DNA from: an uncultured Desulfobacteraceae bacterium
Lineage (GTDB): Bacteria > Desulfobacterota > DSM-4660 > Desulfatiglandales > HGW-15
Reading direction: 5' to 3'
Assembly (NCBI GenBank): GCA_964526655.1
Contig: CAZGIZ010000003.1
Span: 851 to 64,850, forward strand
Length of the DNA: 64,000 bases
In this document: one piece after another, positions 1,938 through 53,611 of the stretch
Layout of the letters: each line of letters starts with the position of its first letter
How positions within the stretch are numbered: the stretch's first letter is position 1
Program-made: the position numbers and the translations under genes
Notes under the pieces: model-generated
What the model saw: only the letters and a program-made list of their open reading frames with translations
Told to the model about the DNA's origin: nothing
The model's database searches: none

Positions 1938-3944
1938 CTATTTCTTCTCTTTTTCCTCAGAGGTCTCTCTTGAAGGAGTATCTTCATTATTCGTCAAGAT
2001 CCCCCTCTTTATGAAGTCTTCGCTCACATAGTCCAAGCCCAATTTTTTCAATGTCTCTTTGGTAGGGATACCGTCGTTGTTCCACCCCTTGAGATTGTAA
2101 TAGGCGTCTAAGAGCTCCTTTTCAAGTTCGGGAAATCTTTTTTTCCAGTGGTTCTGCGGAGGCTTTTCATCTTTCCTCCTCATGCCTCTCCTGATATTAT
2201 TGGCCCTGACAAGGGTCCTGTACCTTTTGGCTGCCTGGGTCAGCTTTTCTTCATCCATATCGATTCCGGCCCCTGCAGATATAAATTTAGGGTAATTGTG
2301 TATATGATATGGTGGCTTCAGGGGAAATGATGATAAACCGGCGCACATCCCGAGGGCGTCATCAATGTAGTGCATCCTCTCCTGCCAGTCGACAATATCA
2401 CAACACATTTGAACCGTCGGGTAATAGGGCATGGATTTTTCTCCGCGTAGTTCCCAGTCCAGCAGGTATTGCTTGAATTTCTCATCAGGGACCTGGAACC
2501 AGTCTTTCACAAATGCCTCTCTCTCCTCTCTCGTGGGCCAGGGCGCCTGGGGGAACTGCCCTTCAATCTGTGTGATATTTATCTTTTCTCCCGTGGCATA
2601 CATAAGGAAATAGATGGGATTCAGCATGGATAGCTTTAGAGGCAGTTGCTCATGTTTCTTGATGTTATTATGGGCGTATTCTTCCGCGCCCTTGCCAATT
2701 TCTTTGGCCGCCCAATAGGTCCCGTTGGCCAGGATATCTCCTATCCCTTCCCTCCTGACAATTCTGTCAAGCAGCCAGTAAAATCTCCCCTCGTTATCGG
2801 CAGGCATTCCCGGCATGTCATCGTCGGTTAATATGCCGTTTTCATAGAGTTCAAGGGCGAAGGCCATAACCTGAGGGGTTGAGAATCCATCCACCCCATA
2901 TTCCGTAGCGCGTTGAGCGATTTTTAGACCAAAATCCAGGTCTGACATGGCAGCCATGGTATAGGTCAGTTTGGAGAAGCATTTCATCATGTAGGTCGGA
3001 TACCCCGGCGGGGAAATGGTCGCACCGCATTTCATGGGACAGTTATAGCAGCTGACCAGCCGCTTCTGCATACTTTCCATGGTCTCCATCCATTGCTTTG
3101 CGATCTCCTCGGTCCAGAAGCCCTTTCTGCGGAGGCGGGAATTGCCCCACATGAAGTTCTCGGTGTGCCACTTTTCATCATGGGTTGCCATCTCCTGCGG
3201 TGAACCGAGCCCCTGTAAAATGGTCATGACACCTGGAATCGGATTTGCGTTTCGGAATTTTATGTATTCGAGCACCTCGTTGCAAAGCGCCAGGTATTCA
3301 TCCGGCCGGGCAACATTGATGTCTCCTGTTCCACGGACGGCGACCGCCTTAACCCCCTTGTCTCCCATAACGGCGCCTATTCCCAGTCGGCTGGCGCTGG
3401 ACCTGCCCTGCTCAATGGAGGCCATATAGACCCTGTTTTCACCGGCCAGACCGATCGCGGCCACCTGGGCCTTTGGTTCGCCCAGCTCCTGGCGGATAAG
3501 TTCTCCTGTTTCGACAGCGCCTTTGCCCTCCAAGTGAGAGGCATCACGTATCTCTACCTTATCATCCTTTATCCATAAATAGACCAGACCAGGAGACTTG
3601 CCGCGGAAAATTACCTTGTCATAGCCGGCATACTTCAGTTCCGGAGCCCAGAATCCACCCATCATGGAAAAGGCCATTAACCTTGTCTGAGGAGAAATGG
3701 TGGAGACAATGGTACGATTACAACCAATGGCAGGTGTGCCGCACAAAAGACCGGCACTGAATATGAGCAGATTTTCATCGGAAAAGGGCTCAACTTCAGG
3801 GGGAACCCTATCCCAAATGAGCTTGGCGTTCGTCCCCAGCCCACCCAGATAAAGCTCGGTGTCTTTTGGATCCGTTTCCACCCTTTCAATGCTTCCCCGG
3901 GATAGATCGATTTCCAGATTAAACCCTGTCTCTGCGTACCTCAT
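1938..3944 (-). CDS. bamB: BamB, tungsten-pterin active-site subunit of class II benzoyl-CoA reductase (AOR family)
   Basis: 668 aa, colinear with Geobacter metallireducens BamB as I recall it. Shared motifs are MRYAETGF..DL..GSIERVETDP.DTELYLGGLGTNAK, EKWHTENF (His at 260), CYNCPMKCGA, YMMKCF (Cys at 322) and HYIDDALGMCAGLSSFPLKPPYHIHNYPKF. Confidence 0.92.
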   Translation of the reverse strand: MRYAETGFNLEIDLSRGSIERVETDPKDTELYLGGLGTNAKLIWDRVPPEVEPFSDENLLIFSAGLLCGTPAIGCNRTIVSTISPQTRLMAFSMMGGFWAPELKYAGYDKVIFRGKSPGLVYLWIKDDKVEIRDASHLEGKGAVETGELIRQELGEPKAQVAAIGLAGENRVYMASIEQGRSSASRLGIGAVMGDKGVKAVAVRGTGDINVARPDEYLALCNEVLEYIKFRNANPIPGVMTILQGLGSPQEMATHDEKWHTENFMWGNSRLRRKGFWTEEIAKQWMETMESMQKRLVSCYNCPMKCGATISPPGYPTYMMKCFSKLTYTMAAMSDLDFGLKIAQRATEYGVDGFSTPQVMAFALELYENGILTDDDMPGMPADNEGRFYWLLDRIVRREGIGDILANGTYWAAKEIGKGAEEYAHNNIKKHEQLPLKLSMLNPIYFLMYATGEKINITQIEGQFPQAPWPTREEREAFVKDWFQVPDEKFKQYLLDWELRGEKSMPYYPTVQMCCDIVDWQERMHYIDDALGMCAGLSSFPLKPPYHIHNYPKFISAGAGIDMDEEKLTQAAKRYRTLVRANNIRRGMRRKDEKPPQNHWKKRFPELEKELLDAYYNLKGWNNDGIPTKETLKKLGLDYVSEDFIKRGILTNNEDTPSRETSEEKEKK

Positions 3945-6200: not shown

Positions 6201-6821
6201 CTATGCCTGTTTCTCTGATGCGTGTTTGATGGATTGTTTGGGAAACGCAAGCGCTTCGGTTAACTCGTAGGCCGCCTGGAGATAGGATGTGGGGCAGAGA
6301 GGAAAGCACTCCTTGCAGTTCCAGCACTCCTTAGAGGCTATCTCAGGGACGAAACTTATCTCCCGGGTTGGCCCCCTGTCAATAAATCCGATAGCATTTT
6401 TCTTCTTTACTTCAGCACAGTACCTTACACATAGACCGCAAAGTATGCAAAAGGAGGGCTCTTTTTCAAAACGGTTCTTGTCCGCTCCATACTCCTGAGC
6501 CAGTTCCTGTAAAGCAGGGGCATCCGGGGCATGAGCCAGCATAAGCTCTAAGAGTGTTTTGCGGGTGCTATCTATCTTCTCGGTCCTGGTTCTCACAACC
6601 AGATCCTTTTCTACCGGGTAAATGCAGGAGGCAACGAGTCTTGTCCTGCCGGCGGTCTCTACTTCTACCGTGCAAATTCGGCAAGCCCCATAGGGATTTA
6701 ATTTCTCGTGGTGACAAAGTGTGGGAATAGATATCCCTATGCTCCGGGCAGCCTCCAAAATGGTCATCCCTTCCTCTGCCTTGACTTCTTTTCCGTCGAT
6801 CTGTAAAAGGATTTCACTCAT
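6201..6821 (-). CDS. bamI: BamI-type [2Fe-2S]/[4Fe-4S] protein (NuoG N-terminal-like)
   Basis: 206 aa with a 2Fe-2S ferredoxin N-terminus (CHHEKLNPYGACRICTVEV) and further Cys clusters (CILCGLCVRYC, CWNCKECFPLCP). Its start overlaps the bamH stop by 4 nt. Confidence 0.8.
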   Translation of the reverse strand: MSEILLQIDGKEVKAEEGMTILEAARSIGISIPTLCHHEKLNPYGACRICTVEVETAGRTRLVASCIYPVEKDLVVRTRTEKIDSTRKTLLELMLAHAPDAPALQELAQEYGADKNRFEKEPSFCILCGLCVRYCAEVKKKNAIGFIDRGPTREISFVPEIASKECWNCKECFPLCPTSYLQAAYELTEALAFPKQSIKHASEKQA

Positions 6822-8752
6822 TTTTCTTTACTCTCTCTGGTTAGGGTTCTTGCTTCTTCAGGGATTGGAGGTGGAACAGGCTCTCCGGACAGCCTTGTCA
6901 CTGCTCTAAAGCGAGAGGGACAAGCCTCGAAGCAAGTCCCGCATTTTGTGCATTTGTCCTGGTCGATTACGTGGATTTGTTTCTTGCCGCCTATAATCGC
7001 CTCGGCAGGGCATTTCCTGAGGCAAATCATACAGGCCTGACATTTGTCCGGGTCAATATAATAGGAGATCAGGTCCTTGCAGACATAAGCCGGGCACCTC
7101 TTCTCCTTGATATGTGCCTCGTACTCATCCCTGAAGTGTCGTATGGTGCTCAGGACAGGGTTCGGGGCAGTCCCGCCCAAAGCGCAGAGTGCAGCCCCTC
7201 TGGTAGCCTCGCACAGCTCCTCCAGAAGCTCGATGTCTCCCTCTCTTCCCTTTCCTTTACTGATATTGGTCAGGATCTTGAGCATCTGCCTGATGCCTTC
7301 ACGGCATGGTGTGCACTTGCCGCAGGACTCATTGGAGAGGAATGTAAGGAAGTATTTGGCGACATCAATCATACAGGTGTCCTCATCCATCACGATCATG
7401 CCGCCGGAACCCATAATCGCACCGACCTTTGCCAGCTCGACATAGTCCACTTGTATATCCAGGTATTCTTCAGGTATGCACCCTCCAGAGGGACCGCCCG
7501 TCTGCACTGCCTTGAACTTCTTGCCCCCGGGTATGCCGCCGCCGACTTCATAGATAATGTCTCTCAGGGTTATGCCCATGGGGACTTCTACGAGGCCGGT
7601 ATTATTCACCTTACCAACCAGTGAAAATATCTTGGTGCCTTTGCTGGCCTCGGTGCCAATTGAGGAAAGGAAATCAGCCCCCTTGTTGATAATCAAGGGG
7701 ATATTAGCCCATGTCTCCACGTTATTAATATTTGTAGGTTTGCCCCGGTATCCTTTTTCGGCCGGATATGGCGGCCTCGGTCTCGGCTCGCCCGGCTTGC
7801 CCTCCAGAGATGCGAGAAGAGACGTTTCTTCACCACAGACAAAGGCGCCTGCTCCCTGATGTACTTTAATGGTGAAATCGAAGCCTGAACCGAGGATATT
7901 TTTCCCAAGGAAACCGTATTCCTCAGCCTGCTTGATGGCGATTCCCACATTTTCCACGGCCAAGGGGTATTCGTGCCGGACATAGATAAAACCCTCATGA
8001 GCGCCCATGGCATAGGCCCCGATTATCAGCCCTTCAAGGACTGAGTGGGGATTCCCCTCGAGCAGGGCCCTATCCATAAAGGCCCCCGGGTCTCCCTCAT
8101 CGGCGTTGACGACCACATACTTTGTCTCACCGGGGCTCTTGCGGGCGAGTTCCCATTTTATCCCGGTAGAGAAACCTGCGCCCCCCCTCCCTCTCAGGTT
8201 GGAGTTCTTGACCAGCTCCACCACCTGCTCAGGAGTCTCTTCAAAAAGTGCCTTCACGAGAGCTGAATAACCGCCAACTGCGAGATAGTCGTCAATACTT
8301 TTGGGATCGATCTTGATATTATTGCCGATAAGGTTCCGCATCTGATTCTTATAGAATGGTATCTCGGATTCATGGACTATCTTCTCATTGGTATCGGCGC
8401 CGGGAACGACATAAAGCAGCCTATCGATGATCTTCTTGGCGACAATGGTCTGGGAAATGATCTCTTCCGCATCGGTGGGCTTGACCTGAAGATAACATAT
8501 CTCCTCAGGATAAATCACAAGCAGGGGCCCTCTCTCACAGAAGCCTGGACAGCCTGTTTCCCTGATATCCACTTTCGTTTCCAGTCCCTGTTTTTTAATC
8601 TCCTCTTTAAGGGCGGTGACGACATTTGCTGCGCCCAGGGCGAGGCAACCCGCTCCAGTACATACAGAAATGCAAGGCTTATCCGGATCCCTCTTTGATA
8701 TGATGTCCTTTCTGAATTCATCCAATTCAGCAGGTGAATTTATCCTTGGCAT
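6818..8752 (-). CDS. bamH: BamH-type NADH-binding flavo-FeS subunit (NuoF-like)
   Basis: 644 aa. GRGGAGFSTGIKW is an FMN/NADH-module motif and SCGKCTPCREG is the NuoF-type 4Fe-4S motif. The C-terminus carries 2x[4Fe-4S] (CQACMICLRKCP, CTKCGTCFEACP). Confidence 0.88.
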   Translation of the reverse strand: MPRINSPAELDEFRKDIISKRDPDKPCISVCTGAGCLALGAANVVTALKEEIKKQGLETKVDIRETGCPGFCERGPLLVIYPEEICYLQVKPTDAEEIISQTIVAKKIIDRLLYVVPGADTNEKIVHESEIPFYKNQMRNLIGNNIKIDPKSIDDYLAVGGYSALVKALFEETPEQVVELVKNSNLRGRGGAGFSTGIKWELARKSPGETKYVVVNADEGDPGAFMDRALLEGNPHSVLEGLIIGAYAMGAHEGFIYVRHEYPLAVENVGIAIKQAEEYGFLGKNILGSGFDFTIKVHQGAGAFVCGEETSLLASLEGKPGEPRPRPPYPAEKGYRGKPTNINNVETWANIPLIINKGADFLSSIGTEASKGTKIFSLVGKVNNTGLVEVPMGITLRDIIYEVGGGIPGGKKFKAVQTGGPSGGCIPEEYLDIQVDYVELAKVGAIMGSGGMIVMDEDTCMIDVAKYFLTFLSNESCGKCTPCREGIRQMLKILTNISKGKGREGDIELLEELCEATRGAALCALGGTAPNPVLSTIRHFRDEYEAHIKEKRCPAYVCKDLISYYIDPDKCQACMICLRKCPAEAIIGGKKQIHVIDQDKCTKCGTCFEACPSRFRAVTRLSGEPVPPPIPEEARTLTRESKEK

Positions 8753-8761
8753 AATTATTCC

Positions 8762-9214
8762 TTAATCGTAGTTTTTTAAGACTTCCTCTGACTTGGCCGG
8801 TGCCATCTTGCCATAATATTCTCCATCGACGATCATCACCGGTCCTAAGGCGCAGCAGCCGACGCAGCTGACAGTCTCCAGGGTGAATTTTAAATCCTTG
8901 TCCGTTTCGCCGGGTCTGATTCCCAGCAGATCCTGAACCGAGTCGAGGAGACGCGGCGCACCGCGGACATGACAGGCAGTGCCCGTGCATACGTGAACTT
9001 CATGACGTCCCTTGGGGACCAGACTGAAGGCCTTATAAAAGGTCACGATATGCTGTATCCGATTTAAAGGCACTTTTAATTTTTTACTGACCTTCTCCAA
9101 TGCCTCCTTGGGAAGCCAGCGATTTTCGCTCTGAATCTCTAATAATACTTGAATGAGCGAACCTGAATCACCCTGATATTTATCTATGATCTTATCGATT
9201 TTATCGCTATCCAT
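8762..9214 (-). CDS. bamG: BamG-type [2Fe-2S] subunit (NuoE-like)
   Basis: 150 aa with the NuoE pattern CTGTACHVRG...CVGCCALGP. Confidence 0.85.
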   Translation of the reverse strand: MDSDKIDKIIDKYQGDSGSLIQVLLEIQSENRWLPKEALEKVSKKLKVPLNRIQHIVTFYKAFSLVPKGRHEVHVCTGTACHVRGAPRLLDSVQDLLGIRPGETDKDLKFTLETVSCVGCCALGPVMIVDGEYYGKMAPAKSEEVLKNYD

Positions 9215-9265: not shown

Positions 9266-10030
9266 TCAGGCGGGAACAAAGCGCTTCTGGTTTTCATCGA
9301 ATCTGACTAATCCCTGCCTGGCTGAGTTCCCAAGGTATTTTGATGCTTCAGAAGGGTCTATGCCCATAATCTCGGAGATTTCTCCGGATGAACGGGGACT
9401 TTCCCGCAGGAGTGCCATAATCTGGCCCATTTCCAATTTATCGACAATTAATTCCTGAAAAAGCCTGTTATATTCGTCACTGTTGAAGAATTCATTATAT
9501 TCCTCTTCTGTCTCAAAACGTACTCTAAGCCTTTCCCTTTCCACCAGCTTAATATAGGGGATTATATTTTTGATCGCATCAAGTTTGGACTTTAATCCAT
9601 TAGCCCTTTCTCCTTTACCCTTGCCAAGAGGCCCCAACTCCCTCAGCTTTTTTGAAAAGTCATTCATAACTTCTGCAAAACGGATTCCTTCTGAGGCGGA
9701 TATCCACTCATGCCTCAATCTCTCGGGGTTCACCCCTGTCAGTTCCATTAATCTTCTGCATATATTCATTATGCTTAATGCAGCGTGATTCCCTTCGGTA
9801 ATATAGTGGCATTCGCCAAGCAGACAACCGCCGATAAACACCCCATCCATTCCATTTGAAAAAGCCCTGAGTATAAATGACATGTCCACCCTGCCCGTGC
9901 ACATGAGGCGGACAATCTTGATATTCGGAGGATATTGCAGTCTGGAAACTCCAGCCAGGTCAGCAGCCGAGTATCCTCACCAATTGCATAAAAAACCTAA
10001 TATTTTTGGTTTAAATTGAATTGGACTCAT
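9266..10030 (-). CDS. bamF: BamF / MvhD-like subunit with in-frame UGA (selenocysteine) at 9977-9979
   Basis: The ORF track starts at 9904 (MCTGRVD). The same frame read from ATG 10030 gives MSPIQFKPKILGFLCNW-TGA-GYSAADLAGVSRLQYPPNIKIVRL-MCTGRVD. That is the conserved MvhD/FlpD N-terminus, with the TGA in place of the second Cys of CNWC. Confidence 0.85.
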
Positions 10031-10121
10031 GTGTCCTCAACTCCTTTGTTAATAGTCACGGCTTTACTGCTTCTGTGAAAACAGACTTAAACCTTGAACC
10101 CTGAACCGTATAACCCTGTTT

Positions 10122-13100
10122 CTACACATCCCCAACCGCTGCATCAAATTGCTGGGTAATTTCTTCTTCTGTAGCAGAAGCCGCGTCAATTTGAGAGAAG
10201 ATCTCTTCATCGGTAAAGTGTTTTAGAAAAATAGCCCCTGTCGGGCACCTTGAGTTGCAAAGGCCGTCTCCTTTACAGAGGACAGGATTAACCCTGGCCT
10301 TTTTACCCTTTGGCGTTTCAACAAACTCTATGGCCCCATACTTACAAACAGATATACATGCCCCGCAAGATACACAATCGTTCTCATTTACCTCGCAAAT
10401 TGCCCCGGATGCTATGACCGCGTCACTTGCAAGTATGTTAACGGCCCGACCCGCGGCCCCGTAAGCCTGGCTGATTGTTTCTGTTATGTGTTTGGGATAG
10501 TGGGCTGTCCCGCACAGGAAAACGCCATCCGCGGCAAAGTCAACGGGCCTTAGTTTTACATGGGCCTCCTGGAAGAACCCATCGGGGTTTAAAGAAACTT
10601 TAAACAATTTGGATATCTCACTAATCGTTGCTGAAGGAATAACCGCGGCTGCAAGGGCCAGCAGATCGGCATTCAGCTCAAGCTTCTGACCCAAAACAGG
10701 ATCGGGGACGGTAATCTTCAGGACTGGTCTCCCTTCCTCTTCACCAACTTCCACCTCTGGTTTGGTTTCAGGAGTGTACCTGATGAACCTTACATCCTTG
10801 TCCGCGGCCTCCCGGTAATAATCCTCCTTAAATCCATAGGTCCTCATATCCCGGAAGATAATGGTAATATCCATATCAGGGTTCAGCTCTTTCAATTTCA
10901 GGGCGTTCTTTATGGAATGGCTGCAGCATACACGGCTGCAGTAATTTCTGTCTTCGTTTCTACAGCCCACACACTGGATCATCGCGAGACTTTTTGCGTT
11001 AATTACCTTTTCGTTTCCTTCTGCGATACGCTCGCCCAGCTCAATATTTGTAAATACCCTATCATCTTCACCATAGAGGTATTCCGTGGGCCGGTATTCT
11101 TCAGCGCCCGTGGCGATGATGGCTATTCCATGGTGAATCTCCTTGACCGTTCCTACGGACTTCACCCTGGTTATAAAATTTCCAACATAACCGGTAGAAT
11201 CTGTAATGGCAGAATTCGTATACACGTGAATCGAGGGGTGCTTGTAGACCTTGTGTATCAGATCATCAAGATATGCCTGGACATCCAGCCCTTCCAGGGT
11301 AAAATAAATTCTTCGGGCCATCCCGCCAAGGTCTTTGTCCTTTTCAATGAGGTAGACCTCAAAGCCCTGCTCAGCCAGGCTCAGGGCGCTGGTCATACCG
11401 GCAATGCCCCCTCCGACCACGAGTCCCCTTTTGTCAACGGGAAGCTCAAATTCCTGCAAAGGCTCCAAAAGAGCGCTCCTGGCTATCGCCATCCGGACTA
11501 TGTCCTTCGCCTTGGCCGTGGCGTCTTCCTTTTCTTTTGAGTGGACCCAGGAGCAATGCTCTCTTATATTGGCCATCTCAAAATAATAGGGATTAATCCC
11601 CCCTTCACGACAGGTGTCCCGGAACAATGGCTCATGGGTCCTGGGGGTGCATGCCGCCACGACAACACGATTGAGCCCTTTTTCCCGGATCGTGTTTGAT
11701 ATCTGCTGGGCATTATCGGTGGAACAGGCAAAGAGGCTTTCCTGGGCGTGGACAACATTGGGTAAGGCGGAGGCGTATTCAACCACGGAAGGGACATCAA
11801 CTACCCTTCCGATATTGGCTCCGCAATGACACACGAAGACACCAACCCTGGGCGTTTCTCCCGAGGCATCCCTTTCCAGAGGATACACCCTTTCTGTATC
11901 CAACTTTCCACGGCGGTAGGCAAGGAACTGGCTGCAAAGGGCATCGGCCCCGCTCGCGGTCATGACCGATTCGGGGATATCTATGGGACCCTGGAAGGCC
12001 CCGCTTACAAATATTCCCGGACGGGACGTCTCAATAGGGTTGACAGTATTGTTCTTGCAGAATCCGTGGGCATTTAGCTCGATGCCGAACTTTTCTGCCA
12101 GATTCTCCACATCATCGGGAGGATTCAATCCCACGGACAATACCACCAGATCGAATTCCTCTTCCTTTACCCCTTCATCAAAAGTAGAGTACCTTATGGT
12201 AACATTCTTGCTTTCAGGGATCTCTTTCCCTATTGACACATAGCTCCTGATAAACCGGACCCCGGGAAGGCTCTCCGCCCTCTGGTAAAACCGCTCAAAA
12301 TCCTTGCCAAAGGCACGGATATCGTTATGGAAAACCGTACACTCCGCCTCTGCATCATGGTCTTTTGTCAGGATCACCTGCTTCTGGGTATAGGTGCAGC
12401 ACACGCCAGAACAGTAACTGTTGCCCCCTTCAAGGATCTGCCTGGAACCCACGCATTGAATCCAGGCTATTTTATGGGGATGCTTCCTGTCGGAAGGGCG
12501 CCTTATCTCACCTTCATAGGGCCCCGTGGAGCATAACAGCCGTTCAAAATCAAGACTGGTTACCACGTTTTCAAACTTTCCATAGCCGTAGTCGTTCCTC
12601 AACCCGGGATCAAATATCCTGTAGCCCGGGGACAGGATGATCGCTCCCACCTCCACCTCAACCTTCTCCGCTTCCTGGTGAAGATCTATGGCTTCATTCT
12701 TACAGGCTCCGATACAGATGTTGCATTTCCCGTCTTTAAAGTAGAGGCAGGCTTCAGGATCCACATAGGTGATAAGGGGAACCGCTTGATTAAAGTATAT
12801 GTGGATGGCCTTGTTCAATGACAGGTTTTGATTAAAGGGGTCAGGGACCTTTACCGGACAGTACTCCACACAGGTTCCGCAACCCGTGCATCTGTCCTCT
12901 CTGATGTACCTGGGTTTCCTGATCAGGGTTACCCTGAAGTCTCCGGGTTCACCTTCTACACGTTCCACTTCAGTATAGGTCATGATCTCTATATTGGGAT
13001 GCCTGTCACATTCAATAAACTTTGGGGACTCAATGCACATGGAGCAGTCATTTGTTGGAAAGGTCTTGTCAAGCTGGGCCATCTTGCCCCCAATGGCAGG

Positions 13101-13253
13101 GGATTTATCCACCAGGTAGACCTTAAAACCAGTGTCAGCAAGGTCAAGGGCGGCCTGGATGCCGCTGATCCCAGCGCCTACAACCAAAACGTCTCCAAAT
13201 TTATCGTCCGATGAATTATCCAATACCTTTTCTTCAACTATTTCTTTTTCCAA
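10122..13253 (-). CDS. bamE: BamE-type HdrA-like FAD/Fe-S oxidoreductase (Cys version)
   Basis: 1043 aa with two dinucleotide-binding motifs (VVGAGISGIQAALDLA and VVGGGIAGMTSALSLA), several Cys clusters and C-terminal 2x[4Fe-4S] (CVSCGACISVC, CKGDGLCNSRCP). TGC at 13035-13037 occupies the position of the TGA in the paralogue at 1-1307. Confidence 0.88.
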   Translation of the reverse strand: MEKEIVEEKVLDNSSDDKFGDVLVVGAGISGIQAALDLADTGFKVYLVDKSPAIGGKMAQLDKTFPTNDCSMCIESPKFIECDRHPNIEIMTYTEVERVEGEPGDFRVTLIRKPRYIREDRCTGCGTCVEYCPVKVPDPFNQNLSLNKAIHIYFNQAVPLITYVDPEACLYFKDGKCNICIGACKNEAIDLHQEAEKVEVEVGAIILSPGYRIFDPGLRNDYGYGKFENVVTSLDFERLLCSTGPYEGEIRRPSDRKHPHKIAWIQCVGSRQILEGGNSYCSGVCCTYTQKQVILTKDHDAEAECTVFHNDIRAFGKDFERFYQRAESLPGVRFIRSYVSIGKEIPESKNVTIRYSTFDEGVKEEEFDLVVLSVGLNPPDDVENLAEKFGIELNAHGFCKNNTVNPIETSRPGIFVSGAFQGPIDIPESVMTASGADALCSQFLAYRRGKLDTERVYPLERDASGETPRVGVFVCHCGANIGRVVDVPSVVEYASALPNVVHAQESLFACSTDNAQQISNTIREKGLNRVVVAACTPRTHEPLFRDTCREGGINPYYFEMANIREHCSWVHSKEKEDATAKAKDIVRMAIARSALLEPLQEFELPVDKRGLVVGGGIAGMTSALSLAEQGFEVYLIEKDKDLGGMARRIYFTLEGLDVQAYLDDLIHKVYKHPSIHVYTNSAITDSTGYVGNFITRVKSVGTVKEIHHGIAIIATGAEEYRPTEYLYGEDDRVFTNIELGERIAEGNEKVINAKSLAMIQCVGCRNEDRNYCSRVCCSHSIKNALKLKELNPDMDITIIFRDMRTYGFKEDYYREAADKDVRFIRYTPETKPEVEVGEEEGRPVLKITVPDPVLGQKLELNADLLALAAAVIPSATISEISKLFKVSLNPDGFFQEAHVKLRPVDFAADGVFLCGTAHYPKHITETISQAYGAAGRAVNILASDAVIASGAICEVNENDCVSCGACISVCKYGAIEFVETPKGKKARVNPVLCKGDGLCNSRCPTGAIFLKHFTDEEIFSQIDAASATEEEITQQFDAAVGDV

Positions 13254-13275
13254 TTTTCTATGTCCTTGATATAGA

Positions 13276-13360
13276 GCTTTCAGCAGTCAGCGGTCAGCAA
13301 TCAGCCAACATCTCTTCTTTTATATTTTTTACTGAAAGCCGAAAGCTAAATGCTGATCGC
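13276..13360. repeat. intergenic hairpin built from tandem heptads (NNTCAGC)x4 and an inverted GCTGANN-type array
   Basis: Left arm, 13276-13305: GC TTTCAGC AGTCAGC GGTCAGC AATCAGC. Right arm, 13332-13360: CTGAAAG CCGAAAG CTAAATG CTGATCG C. It belongs to the same family as 36904-36985. Confidence 0.65.
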
Positions 13361-13393
13361 TCTCATCCATAAACGCCGTTTTATGGATGAGTG

Positions 13394-14545
13394 TTAAATC
13401 ACTTCCGCGATTATCTCCGTAATATCCTTGACCTCCAGCTTTTCCTCAACATCCAGGGTCAGCCTGCTGTCCTCAAAATTGCTGATGCAGTAAGGGCAGG
13501 ATGTAACCAGGACCTCGGCACCTACCTCCATGGCCTGTTCCAGTCTGAGGTCCGAGAATCTCTCACCCTTCGGGGTCTCCATCCAGATCCTGCCTCCCCC
13601 GCCCCCGCAGCAGAGACTGTCTTCACGCGAATCAGCCATCTCGCTCAGCTCCAGGCCGGGTATTTTCTGTAATACCTCCCTCGGTTCATCATAAATACCA
13701 TTGTGCCTCCCAAGGTAGCATGGATCATGATAGGCAACCTTCTTCCCATACTCCCCGGTGATCTCAAGCCTTCCTTCTTTAATAAGCTCGAACAGGTACT
13801 GGGTAATATGAACCACCTCAAATTTCACCATAAACTCGGGATACTCGTTCTTGAAGGTGTGATAACAATGGGGGGAAGAAACAAGGATCTTTTTCACACC
13901 GTTTTCGATAAAGTTCTTGATATTTTCCCTGGCCAGGCGCTTGAATAACTCCTCATCACCAGTCTTGCGGATGCTCTCCCCGCAGCAGCTTTCCTTTGAT
14001 CCCAATATCCCGAACTCCACTCCTGCCTTTTTAAGTATCTTTGCCGTGGCGGCTGCCACCTTCTTTAACCTCGGATCATAGCTGAGATAACAGCCGGAGA
14101 AATATAAAATCTCCATATCTTCGGTAAAGGGTTTGACTGACAGTTCTTTTGACCAGTCCGCCCTTTTTCCCCTCTCTTCTCCAAAGGGATTGCCTTCAGA
14201 GACAAGGTTCGCGTTTATGGTGCGTATCGGTTTGACAGGCGCCGGAAATACCCCGAATTCCGAGGCTATCCTTCGAGAGGAAACATTTACTTCTATCTGA
14301 TTCACCCCCCTCGGACATCTTTGAGGGCATCTCCCGCAGGTGGTGCAACGCCAGATCTCTTCCGTCTCTATCTCGGTCAGACCAAAGGTGGCCTGCCGGA
14401 TCAGCTTGCGCATGCTGAAGTCCCGAACCCTGTTCCAGGGACAGACAGCGTCACACAGTCCACATTGATAGCAATACTTGTAAGATTCCCCACCGGTCTC
14501 TTTTATGAGATCCAGTACCTCTCCTAAGGGCGTTACGGTTTCCAT
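13394..14545 (-). CDS. bamD: BamD-type HdrD-like Fe-S protein with two CCG domains
   Basis: Carries CYQCGLCDAVCP and CTTCGRCPQRCP plus CCG motifs (SKESCCGES, DSLCCGGGGG). The ORF track starts at a TTG at 14617, which abuts a repeat. The in-frame ATG at 14545 (METVTPLGE...) is preferred. Confidence 0.85.
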   Translation of the reverse strand: METVTPLGEVLDLIKETGGESYKYCYQCGLCDAVCPWNRVRDFSMRKLIRQATFGLTEIETEEIWRCTTCGRCPQRCPRGVNQIEVNVSSRRIASEFGVFPAPVKPIRTINANLVSEGNPFGEERGKRADWSKELSVKPFTEDMEILYFSGCYLSYDPRLKKVAAATAKILKKAGVEFGILGSKESCCGESIRKTGDEELFKRLARENIKNFIENGVKKILVSSPHCYHTFKNEYPEFMVKFEVVHITQYLFELIKEGRLEITGEYGKKVAYHDPCYLGRHNGIYDEPREVLQKIPGLELSEMADSREDSLCCGGGGGRIWMETPKGERFSDLRLEQAMEVGAEVLVTSCPYCISNFEDSRLTLDVEEKLEVKDITEIIAEVI

Positions 14546-14615
14546 GGTATCTCTTAGCCTCTGTTGTTGTTTCTTATTATTAGCCCTTCTCCCTATCTGC
14601 CTGGAAAAAGGGGCC

Positions 14616-14703
14616 AAGGATTCGAGGACTCAAGGGTCCAAGTGTCTAAAACCGTTTGTGCTCTTTATGCATTTCACTTGAATCCTTGACCCCTTGAATC
14701 CTT
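14616..14703. repeat. intergenic imperfect inverted repeat (29-nt arms made of ~8-nt CAAGGNNN units)
   Basis: AAGGATTCGAGGACTCAAGGGTCCAAGTG (14616-14644) faces CACTTGAATCCTTGACCCCTTGAATCCTT (14675-14703). It lies between bamC and bamD. Confidence 0.6.
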
Positions 14704-14744
14704 TCTTATAATCCACCAACTGCTTTCTATATTGTCCCTGCGTT

Positions 14745-15299
14745 TTACCCCTTCGACAATCGACTAAAGGTATCCAACACCTTCTTCTTTCCATATTTTT
14801 TAACCAATACTTCGTATGCCAGCTCCATATCCTCCCGCTTCACTTGCTCCTCTTCTTTATCGACTTCCACTTCCCTTTCTTCGTAGGTCAGGGCACCAAA
14901 GGTGCACGCGTCCACGCACATGGGCACTTCCAGGGGCGGGACACTTTCACACATATCGCACTTCAGGGGCAGACCGGAATCCGGTTCCCTGAAGGCTCCC
15001 CTCGAGGGGCAGGAGGCAGGGCAGAAGGTGCACTCGTCGTACTCCTTGCCGTCGATCACGTAGCGGTTTCTACCGTTACATTCCGCCTGGGTATATTCGC
15101 CGGCCCGTATCGGCACAAATATATCCCGGAATTCGTCCATGACGACCATGATCCGGGAGCGTGCGGGATTAACCGAGCTATATTTCGGTACTGCGTGGAA
15201 GGCGGAACACGCTATCTCACATGCCCTGCAGCCCACGCATTTGCTGGTATCCACCTTTATCTCTTTGACTATTTTTTTCTTTTTTCCATTGCCGTTCAC
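14745..15299 (-). CDS. bamC: BamC-type poly-[4Fe-4S] ferredoxin (second copy)
   Basis: 184 aa with the same Cys pattern as 1369-1920 (CVGCRACEIAC, CTFCPASCP, CDMC). Confidence 0.85.
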   Translation of the reverse strand: MNGNGKKKKIVKEIKVDTSKCVGCRACEIACSAFHAVPKYSSVNPARSRIMVVMDEFRDIFVPIRAGEYTQAECNGRNRYVIDGKEYDECTFCPASCPSRGAFREPDSGLPLKCDMCESVPPLEVPMCVDACTFGALTYEEREVEVDKEEEQVKREDMELAYEVLVKKYGKKKVLDTFSRLSKG

Positions 15300-15315
15300 G
15301 GTGACGCCCCCTTCT

Positions 15316-17274
15316 TTATTCCTTCTCTTTCTCGGCCCTGGGATCCTTTAGGGCAGTGACTTCATTCCCTGTCAGAACCCCTTCCTTGATAAGGTCTTCC
15401 GCCACGTAGCCCAGGCTCAATTTCTCCAGGGTCTCTTTGGTGGGAATCCCATCAAAAGTCCAGCCTTTAAAGTCATAATATTTGGTAAGCAACTGCTGCT
15501 CATATTCTTCATTCCTTACGGCCCAGTGATCCTCCGGTGGCCTCTCCATGTGTCTCCTCAGGCCTCTTCTGCTATTGAGGGCCCTGGCAAGGGTCCGGAT
15601 CCTCTGGAAGCATTCCCATAGCCTGTCTTTGTCCATCTCGATCCCAGCCACGAGACTGATTACATCAGGCATATTCCATACGTGATATCCTGTGGTGCCG
15701 CCAAACTGGCCCCTGAATGAGGACACGAATCCGCAAAGCCCCAATGAATCATCCAGGTAGTGCATGCACTCATTCCAATCACTAATTTCGACCATGGCCT
15801 GGTCGGGCAACTGATCGCGTTTTTCCCACTGCCTGAACCACTCATGGAACTTCTTATCAGGGACCGCGACCCAGTTCTTGATGAACTCTTCCCTCAGCTC
15901 AGGATCCGAGATCGGATCCTGGGGGAAGGAGCCTTCAGTCTGGGTGATAGCCATTTCCTCACCCGTGGCTATCATAAGAAAATAGGCCGGATTGAGTTTG
16001 CCCAGCTTTATGGGCAACTGCTCGAATTTCTTGACAGTGTTGTGATCAAATTGCTCGGAGCCCTTACCGATTATGGCAGCCGCGCCGGATACGCCATGGG
16101 CTAAAACATCTCCTATGCCGTCTCTATATGCTATTTTGTGAAGGAGATAGTAGAACCTTTGCCTGATGTCGGTAGGCATATCGGGAAAGTCTTTTTCCGT
16201 CAGGATCCCTGCATCCAGGAGCTCGAGGGCAAAGGCGATAACCTGCGGCGTTGAGTAGGAGTCCAACCCCAGGTCCATGGCAATAGGGAGTATCTCGTAG
16301 GTGAAGTCCAGCTCCTGGAAGGCGGCCATGTGATAGGTGTCTTTTCCGTAGCATTTGTAGGAAAATCTTCGCCGGTTCGGCCATTTGATGAGATTGTGGC
16401 ATGCCTTCGGACAGTTCCAGCAACCTGTCCAGCGGCTCATGTGGTCGTACTTGAGGTTCCGCCATCTCTCTTCGAGCTCCGGGCTCCAGAAGGTCTTTCT
16501 CCGTACACGGGCATTGCCCCAGGAGAAATTGTTGTGATGGAAGCTGTCATCTTCATCGGTGGCCATCCAGTCCCCGATATTCGGGTTCGCATCAAGCTCC
16601 TTCCTCAGGCGTGAGCACATCTCCCAGGCTTCAGCGGGGTGGGCGAGATTGACGTCTCTTGTCCCGCGGACGGCAATCGCCTTCAGCTTTTTGGCCCCCA
16701 TGACCGGCCCGACCGTTCGAGCGGCGCTCGAGTTGCCGCAATCGATGGAGGCCATAATGACCCTGTTCTCCCCGGCCGGACCAATAGCTGCCACCCAGGC
16801 CCTTTTGTCTTTCAACTCATCCTTGATCAAGGTCTGCGTCTCATCCATAAGTCTTCCACGGAGATGCCTGGCATCACGGATCTCGACTTTGTCGTCATGT
16901 ATCGCTAAATAGACCAGGTCGGGCGCCTCGCCCTTAATGACTATTCTGTCATAACCGGCCATTTTCATTTCCGCCCCGAAAAATCCGCCCATCAGGGAAT
17001 GCCCCAGAAATCCGTTCAACGGGGCAATCGTATCCACCGACACTCGGTTTGCCCCTGGAACGCATGTGCCGTTTAAAAGGCCATTACCGAATATAAGCAG
17101 GTTGTCGGGAGACCATGGATCCGTGCCCGGAGGAACCCGATCAAATAGCAGCTTCACGTTCATGCCGAGCCCCCCTAAAAACAATTCAGTATCTCTCGGA
17201 TCGGTCTCTACCTTTTCAATGCTTCCCTTTGACAGATCAACTTCTAATTGGAAGCCTGTCTCAGCGTACCTCAT
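15316..17274 (-). CDS. diverged BamB paralogue (AOR-family W-pterin subunit)
   Basis: 652 aa. The N-terminus is nearly identical to BamB (MRYAETGFQLEVDLSKGSIEKVETDPRDTELFLGGLG). It keeps CWNCPKAC, the KC Cys (FSYKCY) and a His in FHHNNFSWGN, but is diverged elsewhere. Confidence 0.85.
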   Translation of the reverse strand: MRYAETGFQLEVDLSKGSIEKVETDPRDTELFLGGLGMNVKLLFDRVPPGTDPWSPDNLLIFGNGLLNGTCVPGANRVSVDTIAPLNGFLGHSLMGGFFGAEMKMAGYDRIVIKGEAPDLVYLAIHDDKVEIRDARHLRGRLMDETQTLIKDELKDKRAWVAAIGPAGENRVIMASIDCGNSSAARTVGPVMGAKKLKAIAVRGTRDVNLAHPAEAWEMCSRLRKELDANPNIGDWMATDEDDSFHHNNFSWGNARVRRKTFWSPELEERWRNLKYDHMSRWTGCWNCPKACHNLIKWPNRRRFSYKCYGKDTYHMAAFQELDFTYEILPIAMDLGLDSYSTPQVIAFALELLDAGILTEKDFPDMPTDIRQRFYYLLHKIAYRDGIGDVLAHGVSGAAAIIGKGSEQFDHNTVKKFEQLPIKLGKLNPAYFLMIATGEEMAITQTEGSFPQDPISDPELREEFIKNWVAVPDKKFHEWFRQWEKRDQLPDQAMVEISDWNECMHYLDDSLGLCGFVSSFRGQFGGTTGYHVWNMPDVISLVAGIEMDKDRLWECFQRIRTLARALNSRRGLRRHMERPPEDHWAVRNEEYEQQLLTKYYDFKGWTFDGIPTKETLEKLSLGYVAEDLIKEGVLTGNEVTALKDPRAEKEKE

Positions 17275-18157: not shown

Positions 18158-18940
18158 ATGGCGGCCGAAGACAGAAAAGAATTTGCATACAGGGTACAGG
18201 CCCTCGAAAGGGCCCTGGATATACTCGAGTGTTTTTCCCTTCAGGACAGGGAATTGACCCTCTCAGAGGTGGCCGTTAAAACCGGGCTCAATAAAACAAC
18301 GGCTAAAAGGCTTATATCTAATCTCACTGTAAGGGGCTATCTTAGAAGGCTTGATTCAAAGCGCTATCAATTGGGTCTCAGATTGTTTGAGCTGGGAGGT
18401 ATTGTCCAGTCATCATTAAATCTTCGTGAGGCCACTTCCGCTCCCATGTTTCAAATTCAGAAAGAGACAGGAGCGACGGTACTATTGGGAACGGTAATGG
18501 AAGATCAGCTTGCATTGATTGATAAGAGGGAGGGGCGGAGTTTCATCAGGATCTCCGCTGATGTGGGCTGGAGGGGGCCCCTGCACTATGGGATGTTAGG
18601 CATGGTATTGATGGCCTTTCTTGAGCCCCAAGAGGTAAGAAAAATTCTCAAAAAGGATAAACTGCAGGCCTATACCCCATTTTCCATAACGAATGAGGAG
18701 GCCTTCAGTCTGAAACTTGAGCATATCAGGAACCAGGGGTATGTGATAGAAAAAAACGAAGCAGTCGAAGGTATCGTGGGGATCGCAGCCCCGATCAGGG
18801 ATTTCTCCCGCCAGGTAATCGCGGCTTTAGGGATAGTGCTCACAAACGATCAGGCCGGAAACGGGATGAACGAATATGTTGAACTTGTAAAAAAGAGCTG
18901 TGAAAAGATTTCCCGAGAGCTGGGGTACCTTACGATCTAA
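18158..18940 (+). CDS. IclR-family transcriptional regulator
   Basis: 260 aa with an N-terminal wHTH (LERALDILECF...LTLSEVAVKTGLNKTTAKRLISNL) and a C-terminal IclR effector-domain pattern. Confidence 0.85.
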   Translation: MAAEDRKEFAYRVQALERALDILECFSLQDRELTLSEVAVKTGLNKTTAKRLISNLTVRGYLRRLDSKRYQLGLRLFELGGIVQSSLNLREATSAPMFQIQKETGATVLLGTVMEDQLALIDKREGRSFIRISADVGWRGPLHYGMLGMVLMAFLEPQEVRKILKKDKLQAYTPFSITNEEAFSLKLEHIRNQGYVIEKNEAVEGIVGIAAPIRDFSRQVIAALGIVLTNDQAGNGMNEYVELVKKSCEKISRELGYLTI

Positions 18941-19767
18941 TCCGGATCAATGTCTTTTCCTCTGATCCGTTTCTCTCCGCACGGCACGATGAAACCTGAT
19001 TTCTTGTCCATGCATACCAGCGTCATATTAAGTTTTAACCCTAATTCCACGGCCATTGAAGTAGGATGCGATATGCTAATCAAGATGGGAATGCTTGCGC
19101 GCGCGGCCTTCTGGATAATCTCGAAGCTGATCCTGGAGGAAACCACGGCCAGAAACACGTCAGAGAGTCTATGCCCCAGGAACAGGGCTCCGATTGACTT
19201 GTCCATCGCATTATGGCGTCCAACATCCTCCGCCTTCACAATGATATCAAGTCCCGAATCAAAGAGCATGACGGCGTGTGTTCCCCGTGTTCGAGTGTAA
19301 TACTCCTGGTGCCGGAAAAATTTGTTTACGCATTCAAGAACCTGCTTGTAACTTATCCCGGATTCTCCATCAACAGCCTTCAGATTATCGGTCAAATCCT
19401 CTATCATCTCCCTGCCGCATATCCCGCAACTGGTCTGGCTGAGAAAGCCCCCTCTCTCAAGCTGTCCCGTAACCGATTTCTTTCTCTTGTCATTCAATTG
19501 GATCATGATGCTGTTTTCATCTATATCGCTGCAGAAACCTATTGAGGCAAAATCCTCAGGAGTATCAACCAGTCCTTCCGAAAGGCAGAAACCTGCCGCG
19601 TGCGCGATCTCATCACCCGGAGTCCGCATAACCACGGCGTAGGGCCTGCCTTCCACGTTTATCAGCAGGGGCTCCTCTCGTACAAAATCCTGCATGTATC
19701 TGTTCATAAGACCATCTTCATAACGCGCAAGATCATAGGTCTCTAATACTTGTCTATTCCCTTCCAT
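18937..19767 (-). CDS. fdhD: FdhD-type sulfurtransferase / formate dehydrogenase accessory protein
   Basis: 276 aa with the FdhD signature SCGICG and C-terminal VSSRISFEIIQKAARASIPIL. Confidence 0.8.
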   Translation of the reverse strand: MEGNRQVLETYDLARYEDGLMNRYMQDFVREEPLLINVEGRPYAVVMRTPGDEIAHAAGFCLSEGLVDTPEDFASIGFCSDIDENSIMIQLNDKRKKSVTGQLERGGFLSQTSCGICGREMIEDLTDNLKAVDGESGISYKQVLECVNKFFRHQEYYTRTRGTHAVMLFDSGLDIIVKAEDVGRHNAMDKSIGALFLGHRLSDVFLAVVSSRISFEIIQKAARASIPILISISHPTSMAVELGLKLNMTLVCMDKKSGFIVPCGEKRIRGKDIDPD

Positions 19768-20294: not shown

Positions 20295-21878
20295 TTACAG
20301 GTCGCGAAGCCTGAACCTTTGTATCTTTCCGGTCGAGCTTTTTGGCAGCTCCTTTACGAACTCGATCCATCGCGGATATTTGTATTTGGCCAATCTTTCC
20401 AGGACCCATTTTTGTAATTCTTTGGCAAGTTCATCCCTGGGTTCTACTCCTTCACGAAGGATGACAAAGGCCTTCGGCTTGGTAAGGCCCTTTTCATCCT
20501 CGTGACCGATAACCGCGGTCTCAAGAACCGCCGGATGGCTTGTCAGACAATTTTCAACCTCCAGGGGAGAGACCCAAATGCCTCCGACCTTTAACATATC
20601 GTCAGACCTGCCTGCACACCAGTAGAATCCGTCCTTGTCCATATAGTATTTGTCACCCGTATTTATCCATTCCCCGACCATGGTCTGGCGGGATTTCTCC
20701 CTCTTGCGCCAGTACATCTGGGCGGCGCTTGCACCCTTTACCATAAGGGTGCCCGTCTCCCCCTGGGGCACCTCGTTTCCTTCGTCATCCAGGAGTTTGA
20801 TCTCATAGCCCGGGACCGGCTTTCCCGTGGAGCCGGGCTTCAATTCTCCTGGACGGTTTGAGAGGAAGATATGGCCCATCTCCGTTGACCCGATCCCATC
20901 CAGGATATCAACACCATAGCGTTTTTTCCAACGATCATAGATATCGATGGGAAGGGCCTCCCCGGCGGATACGCATATCCGCACAGATGAGAGGGCATGA
21001 TCCGAATTCGGGTCCAGGTCTTCACCTGTCTCTTTATCCAGGCGGTACTGGTATTCCAGCATCTGGCCATAGAGGGTAGGGACCCCGAAAAAGATAGTGG
21101 GCCTGTACTTTATGAGATACTCAAAGACATTCTCCGGTTTGGGAGCCTGGGGATTCAGGACAACGGAGCATCCCGCGTACATGGGGAAAAAGACACTGTT
21201 CCCGAGTCCATAGGAGAAAAACATGCGCGCGGCGGAAAAAATAACATCATCCTCCTTGATACCCAGGACCTTTTTGGCATAGGACTCGGAGGTCACAACC
21301 ATGTCATACTGGGAATGGATGGCCCCCTTAGGTGCACCAGTGGAACCTGAGCTGTACAACCAGAATCCGACGTCATCCCTTGTCGTAAAGGCCGTCTTGA
21401 TATCGGCCGTGGCGCGTTTATATTTCTGTTTGAATGGTATCCTCGCGCCTTCGACCTCGGATACTACGACAATATCGCGGAGATAGGGGAGGTCCCCCTG
21501 GATATTATTGATCACGGGCAAAAGCTCCTCGGAGACGGCGAGCACGCGGGAACGGCTGTCGTTCAGATAGAACTCATAATCATCAGGTGTCAGCATCGTG
21601 TTTACGGGAATGGGAACGGCGCCGATCCTGATTGATCCCCAGAACATTGCATAGAACTGCGGGATATCGAGCATCAGTATCATTACCTTGTCTTCGATAC
21701 GCACCCCCAGATCGCGCATGGCGTTCGCCGTCTTGTTCACCATTTTTTGGATTTCATTGTAGGTGTAGTTACGGTAGTCCGTGTAGATGGCCGCTTTATG
21801 GCCCCTTCCCTGGCGAATATTCCGGTCTATAAAAAAGTCGGTCGCGTTAAAAAAATCCGGTATTTCCTGCTGAGACAT
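20295..21878 (-). CDS. benzoate-CoA ligase-type AMP-forming acyl-CoA synthetase (BamY/BclA-like)
   Basis: 527 aa with adenylate-forming motifs (YSSGSTGAPKG, GEWINTGDKY, SSTGKIQR). The N-terminal pattern is typical of aromatic acid-CoA ligases (FFNATDFFIDRNI...GRGHKAAIY). Confidence 0.8.
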   Translation of the reverse strand: MSQQEIPDFFNATDFFIDRNIRQGRGHKAAIYTDYRNYTYNEIQKMVNKTANAMRDLGVRIEDKVMILMLDIPQFYAMFWGSIRIGAVPIPVNTMLTPDDYEFYLNDSRSRVLAVSEELLPVINNIQGDLPYLRDIVVVSEVEGARIPFKQKYKRATADIKTAFTTRDDVGFWLYSSGSTGAPKGAIHSQYDMVVTSESYAKKVLGIKEDDVIFSAARMFFSYGLGNSVFFPMYAGCSVVLNPQAPKPENVFEYLIKYRPTIFFGVPTLYGQMLEYQYRLDKETGEDLDPNSDHALSSVRICVSAGEALPIDIYDRWKKRYGVDILDGIGSTEMGHIFLSNRPGELKPGSTGKPVPGYEIKLLDDEGNEVPQGETGTLMVKGASAAQMYWRKREKSRQTMVGEWINTGDKYYMDKDGFYWCAGRSDDMLKVGGIWVSPLEVENCLTSHPAVLETAVIGHEDEKGLTKPKAFVILREGVEPRDELAKELQKWVLERLAKYKYPRWIEFVKELPKSSTGKIQRFRLRDL

Positions 21879-53058: not shown

Positions 53059-53570
53059 GTGGCGGGTATGGCAGACCCTCGCGAATGGGCAAAAACAGGC
53101 AGCCAGATTTATATTGAGGGTTCCGGGTCCAAGCTGACGGGGATTGACGGAAAGGGATACCTTGATGCGACATCTTGCGGGCTGACAAACAACATAGGTT
53201 ATGGGAACCGGGAGATGGCTGAGGCAGCAAAGGAGCAGATGATCAAACTGTACCATGTCCCTAATTTTGGGGGCCAAGTCGGCCTGCCCTATATCAAGCT
53301 GGCACAAAAGCTTGCTGAAATCTCACCCATGCAACGCTTCCTGGTGGAGAATAGCGGATCGGAGGTGGTGGACGCCGCTTTCAAGGTCGCACGGTTGTAT
53401 TGGCGGGAAAACGGCCTCGATAAGTATAAGATTATCTCCCTGGAACGGGCCTATCATGGCTTCACCTTCGGTGCGTTGAGCGCAATGGGTGTCCCCATGT
53501 TTAAGAGTTCAATCTTTAATCCTCTGGTCCCGGGAACTCTATGTCTTGAGCTCCCGGTAACGGCCGTTGA
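53059..53570 (+). pseudogene. N-terminal ~170 codons of a class-III (omega-type) aminotransferase, truncated
   Basis: GSKLTGIDGKGYLDATSCGLTNNIGYGNREMAEAAKEQM...ENSGSEVVDAAFKVARLYW...LERAYHGFTFGALSAMG matches the family. Homology stops near 53570, the PLP-lysine region is missing, and the frame runs into the AOR-3 gene. Confidence 0.6.
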
Positions 53571-53611
53571 AACCCAAGGCCATAAATTTACAAACCAAAT
53601 GGAGGTGAAAC

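Follow-up and report, generated by a model that had tools for sequence, protein, structure and literature searches.

The MvhD-like adaptor BamF of the Geobacter metallireducens benzoyl-CoA reductase was described in a 2026 cryo-EM preprint as a protein that exceeds MvhD by more than 100 residues and whose winged helix-turn-helix (HTH) contacts BamI. According to the same preprint, the [2Fe-2S] cluster of BamF passes on electrons that come from the BamGHI module and are bound for the bifurcating BamE FAD, and a selenocysteine (Sec19), which replaces the cluster-adjacent cysteine of methanogen MvhD, possibly acts through a selenenylsulfide. A 2026 review counts MvhD/VhuD (PF02662) among the CxxU selenoprotein families, and the occurrence of Sec and Cys at one codon is the standard signature for calling bacterial selenoproteins (PMC13188914). 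Sec has also been reported in MvhD, HdrA and BamE of Desulfococcus multivorans. A first-pass annotation of the DNA analysed here had pointed to Sec in subunits of this type from G. metallireducens and from methanogens; with Sec19 seen in G. metallireducens BamF and MvhD/VhuD among the listed CxxU families, that precedent is a real one.

We examined a bamF gene on the minus strand of a 64-kb stretch of DNA (the window, in whose numbering all positions are given). On the evidence of its sequence, we assign a probability of about 0.92 to the reading that the gene product is a selenoprotein of 254 residues, which serves as the MvhD-like adaptor in a tungsten (class II) benzoyl-CoA reductase, BamBCDEFGHI. 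The gene resembles G. metallireducens bamF in its place in the gene order, in the combination of an MvhD-like domain with a C-terminal winged-HTH extension of ∼120 residues and in the CxxU position, which falls at residue 18 in the window and at residue 19 in both G. metallireducens BamF and the Desulfuromonadales orthologue L021. With the Sec forms of MvhD/VhuD from methanogens and sulfate reducers, window BamF shares the fold family and the Cys/Sec position by the [2Fe-2S] cluster. MvhD/VhuD differ in their shorter chain (∼140 aa), which has no HTH extension, and in their partners, which are hydrogenase/Hdr and not benzoyl-CoA reductase. Two Sec residues are listed for archaeal VhuD, in contrast to window BamF, and archaeal selenoprotein genes have their SECIS outside the coding region, unlike window bamF (PMC13188914). 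Window BamF is a further example of a selenoprotein that is already known, and earlier work has described its Sec site, the family and the mechanism.

Gene model, domains and gene cluster

The open reading frame given for this gene in the ORF list spans 9266–9904 (−) and encodes 212 aa. An ATG at 10030–10028 (−) lies in frame with it, 126 nt upstream of 9904, and the frame from this ATG reads MSPIQFKPKILGFLCNW-TGA-GYSAADLAGVSRLQYPPNIKIVRL-MCTGRVD, joining the listed ORF at 9904. The in-frame TGA at 9979–9977 (−) is the sole interruption. The full-length bamF CDS is therefore modelled at 9266–10030 (−) with 254 codons plus a stop, in which codon 18 is the putative UGA selenocysteine codon (9977–9979), the second position of the motif C15-N-W-U18; the gene's own stop (9268–9266) is also TGA. 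Shine-Dalgarno-like sequences (10034–10047; AAAGGAG at 10047–10041 and GAGGA at 10038–10034) stand ahead of ATG 10030, and no similar sequence lies before the starts chosen in public gene calls, ATG 9904 and ATG 9883. A promoter and terminator scan from 10122 to 9904 returned nothing informative. When the sequence was read again, the frame from ATG 10030, the TGA, the hairpin and the GGATA/TATCC segments all lay where the first-pass annotation had placed them. TGA is an ordinary stop in the window, ending 14 of the 42 confident genes (bamF included), which excludes a reassigned genetic code; the recoding of bamF must therefore be local. Other candidate TGA-interrupted genes in the window were all antisense to, or downstream of, real genes and were rejected.

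For homology searches, the read-through protein carried Cys in place of the UGA stop. The Pfam profile FlpD/MvhD (PF02662) covers residues 10–133 over its entire length (positions 1–123 of 123; 168 bits, E = 1.1e-49), whereas the 212-aa ORF alone matches only positions 34–123 with 106 bits, so that the 42-codon extension adds 62 bits and completes the profile. This domain, with the [2Fe-2S]-binding cysteines, is encoded at 9632–10003 (−). It is followed by the C-terminal HTH of the BamF-specific extension (residues 203–233; 9332–9424, −), recognized through matches to HTH_5 and MarR_2 that span residues 201–250, and the total of 254 aa compares with ∼140 aa for MvhD. A protein search with the read-through sequence recovered thousands of relatives, of which the best full-length homologues are ∼255 aa long, are 70–77% identical, cover 98–100% of the query including the N-terminus and read ...FKPRILGFLCNWCCY... 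in this region; homologues thus do align upstream of M43. The closest relatives are Desulfobacterales-type MAGs (∼75% identity). Solved MvhD chains match with E values from 1e-46 to 1e-26; they align from query residue 5 (e.g. 5odc_D, E = 1e-46), and the CNWC cysteine of MvhD 5odc_D falls on the bamF UGA. The completed profile, the ∼255-aa homologues and the solved MvhD chains bear out the proposal that reading through the UGA restores the missing MvhD/FlpD N-terminus.

The gene lies between bamE and bamG in a complete cluster with the order bamBCDEFGHI, all on the minus strand (upstream genes 10122–17274, downstream genes 6201–9214). Its members were recognized by domain content: BamB, of the aldehyde:ferredoxin-oxidoreductase (AOR) family (17274–15316), BamC, a small Fe-S protein (15299–14745), BamD, an HdrD-like CCG-domain protein (14617–13394), BamE, a double HdrA-like flavoprotein of 1043 aa (13253–10122), BamF itself (10030–9266), BamG, which is NuoE-like (9214–8762), BamH, which is NuoF-like (8752–6818), and BamI, a 2Fe-2S/4Fe-4S protein (6821–6201). 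The class II (tungsten) benzoyl-CoA reductase has its genes in this order, and the gene is identified as bamF on that account; by gene content and order, it is assigned to a class II benzoyl-CoA reductase cluster. A benzoate-CoA ligase is encoded nearby (20295–21878). Directly upstream of the bam cluster and adjoining the ligase are an FdhD-type sulfurtransferase (18937–19767, −) and an IclR/PcaR-type regulator (18158–18940, +); the position of FdhD beside a tungsten enzyme cluster may have a bearing on cofactor maturation.

BamE was also inspected for a second Sec codon and none was found: the gene has a normal start, no TGA and Cys at both N-terminal CxxC positions (C70-S-M-C73). In this it differs from the BamE reported with Sec in D. 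multivorans. In one related locus (L036), TGA (43–45) occupies the second CxxC position of BamE, a site that the 3-kb flanks rarely span. Five genes of the AOR family occur within the 64 kb (1938–3944, −; 15316–17274, −; 24039–25907, +; 45059–46897, +; 53612–55525, +). The first of these, with the BamC-like Fe-S gene that comes after it (1369–1920), may form a second BamBC pair, and the remaining ones sit among ABC-transporter and acyl-CoA/OYE-type reductase genes. A 201-aa ORF (53059–53664, +) that overlaps the AOR start at 53612 is probably what remains of a truncated gene; of the 403 positions of a class-III aminotransferase profile, it matches only 12–166.

Codon 18 and the hairpin downstream of it

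To read codon 18 across the family, 80 loci were fetched from species-representative genomes using the part of BamF downstream of M43, and the frame upstream was then read, which yielded 78 orthologous genes with a C-x-W-X motif. The codon for X is TGA in 51 of the 78, TGC in 14 and TGT in 13. This column and the alignment to MvhD structures agree with the earlier proposal that UGA takes the place of the second Cys of the CNWC motif. The TGA orthologues come from MAGs and isolates labelled as many phyla, with a highly conserved flanking peptide. Fitch parsimony on a neighbour-joining tree gives at least nine Sec/Cys changes, a count that is indicative only, the tree being built from the C-terminal region with the Sec segment excluded and carrying no support values. 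With at least nine switches, the association between TGA and the hairpin described below does not trace to one event. Window BamF is of the Sec type, yet has after the hairpin the residues YPP that are typical of Cys-type genes, and its nearest neighbours in the C-terminal tree include the Cys-type loci L001 and L003; this suggests, from the sequences compared, a recent Sec/Cys switch or recombination between N-terminal modules. Locus L020, a Thermoleophilia MAG, has two Sec-type BamF-like genes (L020:1987 and L020:2926) ∼940 nt apart, each with TGA and hairpin.

In the window, the sequence CTGGA-GTT-TCCAG (9954–9942, −) starts at the 23rd nucleotide after the TGA, leaving 22 nt between them. 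It forms the centre of the putative core SECIS hairpin GGCUGGAGUUUCCAGAC (9940–9956, −), in which the stem CUGG(A)/(U)CCAG (9954–9942) encloses a GUU (or AGUUU) loop and is extended by a G-C pair past a bulged A at 9941. The RNA segment compared reaches from 12 nt ahead of codon 18 to 72 nt beyond it; it aligns without gaps in all genes, and the hairpin statistics use 50 distinct TGA sequences and 27 Cys genes. The pattern G-[G/U]-CUGG-N-GU-N-N-CCAG-[A/G]-C is nearly invariant in the 50 TGA sequences, synonymous sites included. The 4-bp core CUGG/CCAG is formed in 50 of 50 TGA genes and in none of the 27 Cys genes, and in all 50 the core stem is extended, either by G-C past a bulged A (n = 34, the window included) or by a direct U-A pair (n = 16). 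Within the hairpin, third codon positions have an entropy of 0.38 bits in TGA genes compared with 1.47 bits in Cys genes, whereas saturation downstream of the element is equal in the two sets (1.48 and 1.41, respectively). The Arg codon in the hairpin is AGA or AGG in every TGA gene (50/50) and CGN in 25 of the 27 Cys genes; the Ser/Thr codon is NCC in every TGA gene. In the 64 kb there is a single copy of the motif CTGGNGTNNCCAG (0.2 expected over both strands), placed exactly at the bamF site.

Folding energies gave a mixed picture. The local minimum free energy (MFE) is lower in Sec genes than in Cys genes (−7.2 versus −4.4 kcal/mol, p = 1.5e-6), but over the region from the UGA to +50 as a whole the Sec genes fold no better and the Cys genes are at least as stable. 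General folding stability was therefore rejected as a SECIS signal, the Cys genes being the more stable over the whole region. Single-sequence folding of the window element is unremarkable (z = −0.79), and its unconstrained MFE fold (−15.3 kcal/mol) bypasses the apical hairpin. RNAalifold on the 50 Sec sequences returned the 4-bp core only, with zero covarying pairs; since the stem is invariant, it has no compensatory changes to offer. A search of Rfam at gathering and permissive thresholds gave chance-level matches only, and Rfam has no family with which a bacterial SECIS could be scored. The case for a SECIS accordingly rests on synonymous-site conservation specific to the TGA genes, and not on thermodynamics or compensatory changes.

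The published bacterial SECIS (bSECIS) criteria call for a loop of 3–9 nt, an upper stem of at least 4 bp, a G in the first two loop positions (usually then G or U), 16–37 nt from UGA to loop and an MFE of −7.5 kcal/mol or lower (PMC13188914). The window hairpin falls within these limits on every count, with a GUU (or AGUUU) loop, a stem of 5 bp plus the extension, a loop that begins G-U, a UGA-to-loop spacing of 26–27 nt and −14.1 kcal/mol when the hairpin is enforced. Against the bacterial SECIS consensus (the Zhang & Gladyshev model, as given in PMC13188914), the element shares the in-frame position directly downstream of the UGA, the small apical loop initiated by G-U, the bulged base below the upper stem and the loop distance, which lies inside 16–37 nt. 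Together with the 50/50 versus 0/27 distribution, this supports the reading of the bamF hairpin as a bacterial SECIS, maintained by codon choice in UGA-bearing orthologues only, and upholds the first-pass proposal of a SECIS-like hairpin downstream of the UGA. In E. coli fdhF, the minimal hairpin starts ∼11 nt after the UGA. The spacing in bamF is longer, with the stem starting 22 nt after the UGA gaplessly in 50 of 50 sequences, and the window stem is short (5 bp plus 1–3) and unrelated in sequence; by its start position, the window element is not of the fdhF type.

The first-pass annotation had also enclosed the hairpin in an outer helix, and this part of its model was rejected as a conserved feature. 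In the window, GGATA (9976–9972, −) and TATCC (9934–9930, −) can indeed pair, and the pairing extends to GAGGAUA (9972–9978, −), a 5′ arm that begins inside the UGA codon, and UAUCCUC (9928–9934, −), the 3′ arm. The C at 9931 (column 61) that makes the second outer pair is found in one of the 50 sequences, that of the window. The outer helix is 83% paired in the Sec set, through positions fixed by the protein, namely the G of the Gly/Ala codon and the UA of two Tyr codons. The freely varying outer pair 18–60 shows no association (with A, 19 U and 6 C; with G, 14 U and 6 C), and there is no real covariation among the 50 Sec sequences. The residues YPP after the hairpin of window BamF account for an outer helix that is perfect only here.

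Proposed decoding and alternative readings

The predicted recoding of bamF is of the standard bacterial SECIS-directed kind. Translation could start at ATG 10030, behind the Shine-Dalgarno sequence, and reach the UGA of codon 18 at the conserved CNW-C position, with the hairpin 22 nt downstream and its loop G 27 nt after the UGA. Following the established bacterial mechanism, SelB-GTP-Sec-tRNA(Sec) would bind the apical GU-containing loop as the ribosome arrives at the UGA, out-compete RF2 and lead to insertion of selenocysteine; the terminal UGA of bamF, which has no such hairpin, would terminate normally. If the G. metallireducens structure is a guide, the selenol would be adjacent to the BamF [2Fe-2S] cluster without being a ligand, and may help to turn one-electron delivery by BamGHI into two-electron reduction of the bifurcating BamE FAD, possibly by way of a selenenylsulfide. 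No selA, selB, selD or tRNA-Sec was found within the 64-kb window, which holds no tRNA of any kind.

That last result would also sit with decoding of the UGA without selenium, whether by near-cognate read-through (Trp or Cys) or by a Cys-loaded tRNA-Sec. We regard such decoding as very improbable, as the conserved hairpin agrees with the model of a SelB-dependent SECIS, the enzyme purified from G. metallireducens has Sec at the equivalent residue and the use of TGA to end 14 of 42 window genes shows that this codon is neither leaky nor reassigned in general. Still less probable is a pseudogene created by a recent nonsense mutation from TGY to TGA, which would leave the cell without functional full-length BamF, at most with an N-terminally truncated form. 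A single base change converts TGT or TGC to TGA, the products of the public gene callers are indeed truncated (205 and 212 aa) and the same missing Sec machinery could be cited, but 51 orthologues, from different phyla, have TGA at this codon, the 17 codons ahead of it and the Shine-Dalgarno sequence are undamaged and agree with the consensus, and the hairpin is identical to a family consensus that is absent from every Cys gene. In a truncated product, moreover, C15 would be missing, as would positions 1–33 of the FlpD profile.

That one base of a Cys codon was miscalled in sequencing or assembly is barely credible: the source looks to be of the metagenome type, with an identical BamG on a read-archive contig, but one wrong base cannot also create the Sec-type codons downstream (GCU GGA GUU UCC AGA C; U-G, not C-C), and a 212-aa JGI gene call in the same 90% cluster is likewise truncated. 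The idea that the hairpin has another role (mRNA stability or translational pausing) and stands near the UGA incidentally, for which the want of covariation in the stem might speak, is just as implausible given its perfect co-occurrence with TGA across at least nine switches, a spacing to the UGA that is fixed without gaps in all 50 sequences and a loop that obeys the SelB-type G-U rule. SECIS-directed insertion of selenocysteine at codon 18 is thus the reading that we retain.

Sec-type and Cys-type BamF

The Cys-type orthologues (CNWCC) have the same length, domains and operon as window BamF and are 70–77% identical to it outside the N-terminal segment; they differ in having TGY in place of TGA and no hairpin. 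Further differences lie next to the exchanged residue. Sec-type BamF reads CNW-U-[G/A]-Y (the codon after the UGA is at 9974–9976 in the window) and R-[L/Q]-QY, while Cys-type BamF reads CNW-C-C-Y in 26 of 27 loci and in 118 of 119 database proteins (P0002–P0120), followed by R-[Y/F]-QYPP and often by a further Cys in DL-C-GV. Methanogen MvhD reads CNWC-[T/S] at this point. The swap from Sec to Cys is consistently coupled to a second, vicinal cysteine (CNW-U-[GA] versus CNW-C-C), and it has occurred repeatedly on the rough tree (at least nine switches). These patterns raise the possibility, doubtful as we hold it, that Sec-type and Cys-type BamF are two discrete chemical designs and not a simple one-residue swap; alternatively, it may be RNA or termination context, not chemistry, that determines the G/A after the UGA. 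If the Cys-Cys pair does replace the selenol (e.g. a vicinal disulfide for a selenenylsulfide), it would provide a handle on how electrons pass from the [2Fe-2S] cluster of BamF to the bifurcating BamE FAD.

In public databases, the only entries that are 100% identical to window BamF are truncated calls, P0001 (205 aa, NCBI), which starts at M50, and P0121 (212 aa, JGI), whose length equals that of the ORF starting at M43; both public calls in the 90% cluster of bamF are truncated. The full-length protein is 42–49 codons longer than these calls (254 versus 212 and 205 aa). All 119 full-length top matches in the protein database are of the Cys type. Gene callers presumably truncate other Sec-type BamF proteins likewise, and such truncation would leave the protein databases with almost only Cys-type sequences at full length. 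Of the BamF orthologues in the sample of species-representative genomes, some two thirds (51/78) are of the Sec type, which is under-represented in the protein databases.

The bamF gene of the window leaves current understanding unchanged. Its practical outcome is an annotation correction, to a bamF of 254 codons with a predicted Sec18, where the truncated public products are without the selenol and one of the cluster cysteines. As a marker for recovering Sec-type bamF genes, the 17-nt hairpin is simple and, in this sample, perfectly specific (50/50 versus 0/27), and it could serve to predict, from environmental genomes, whether anaerobic aromatic degradation depends on selenium.
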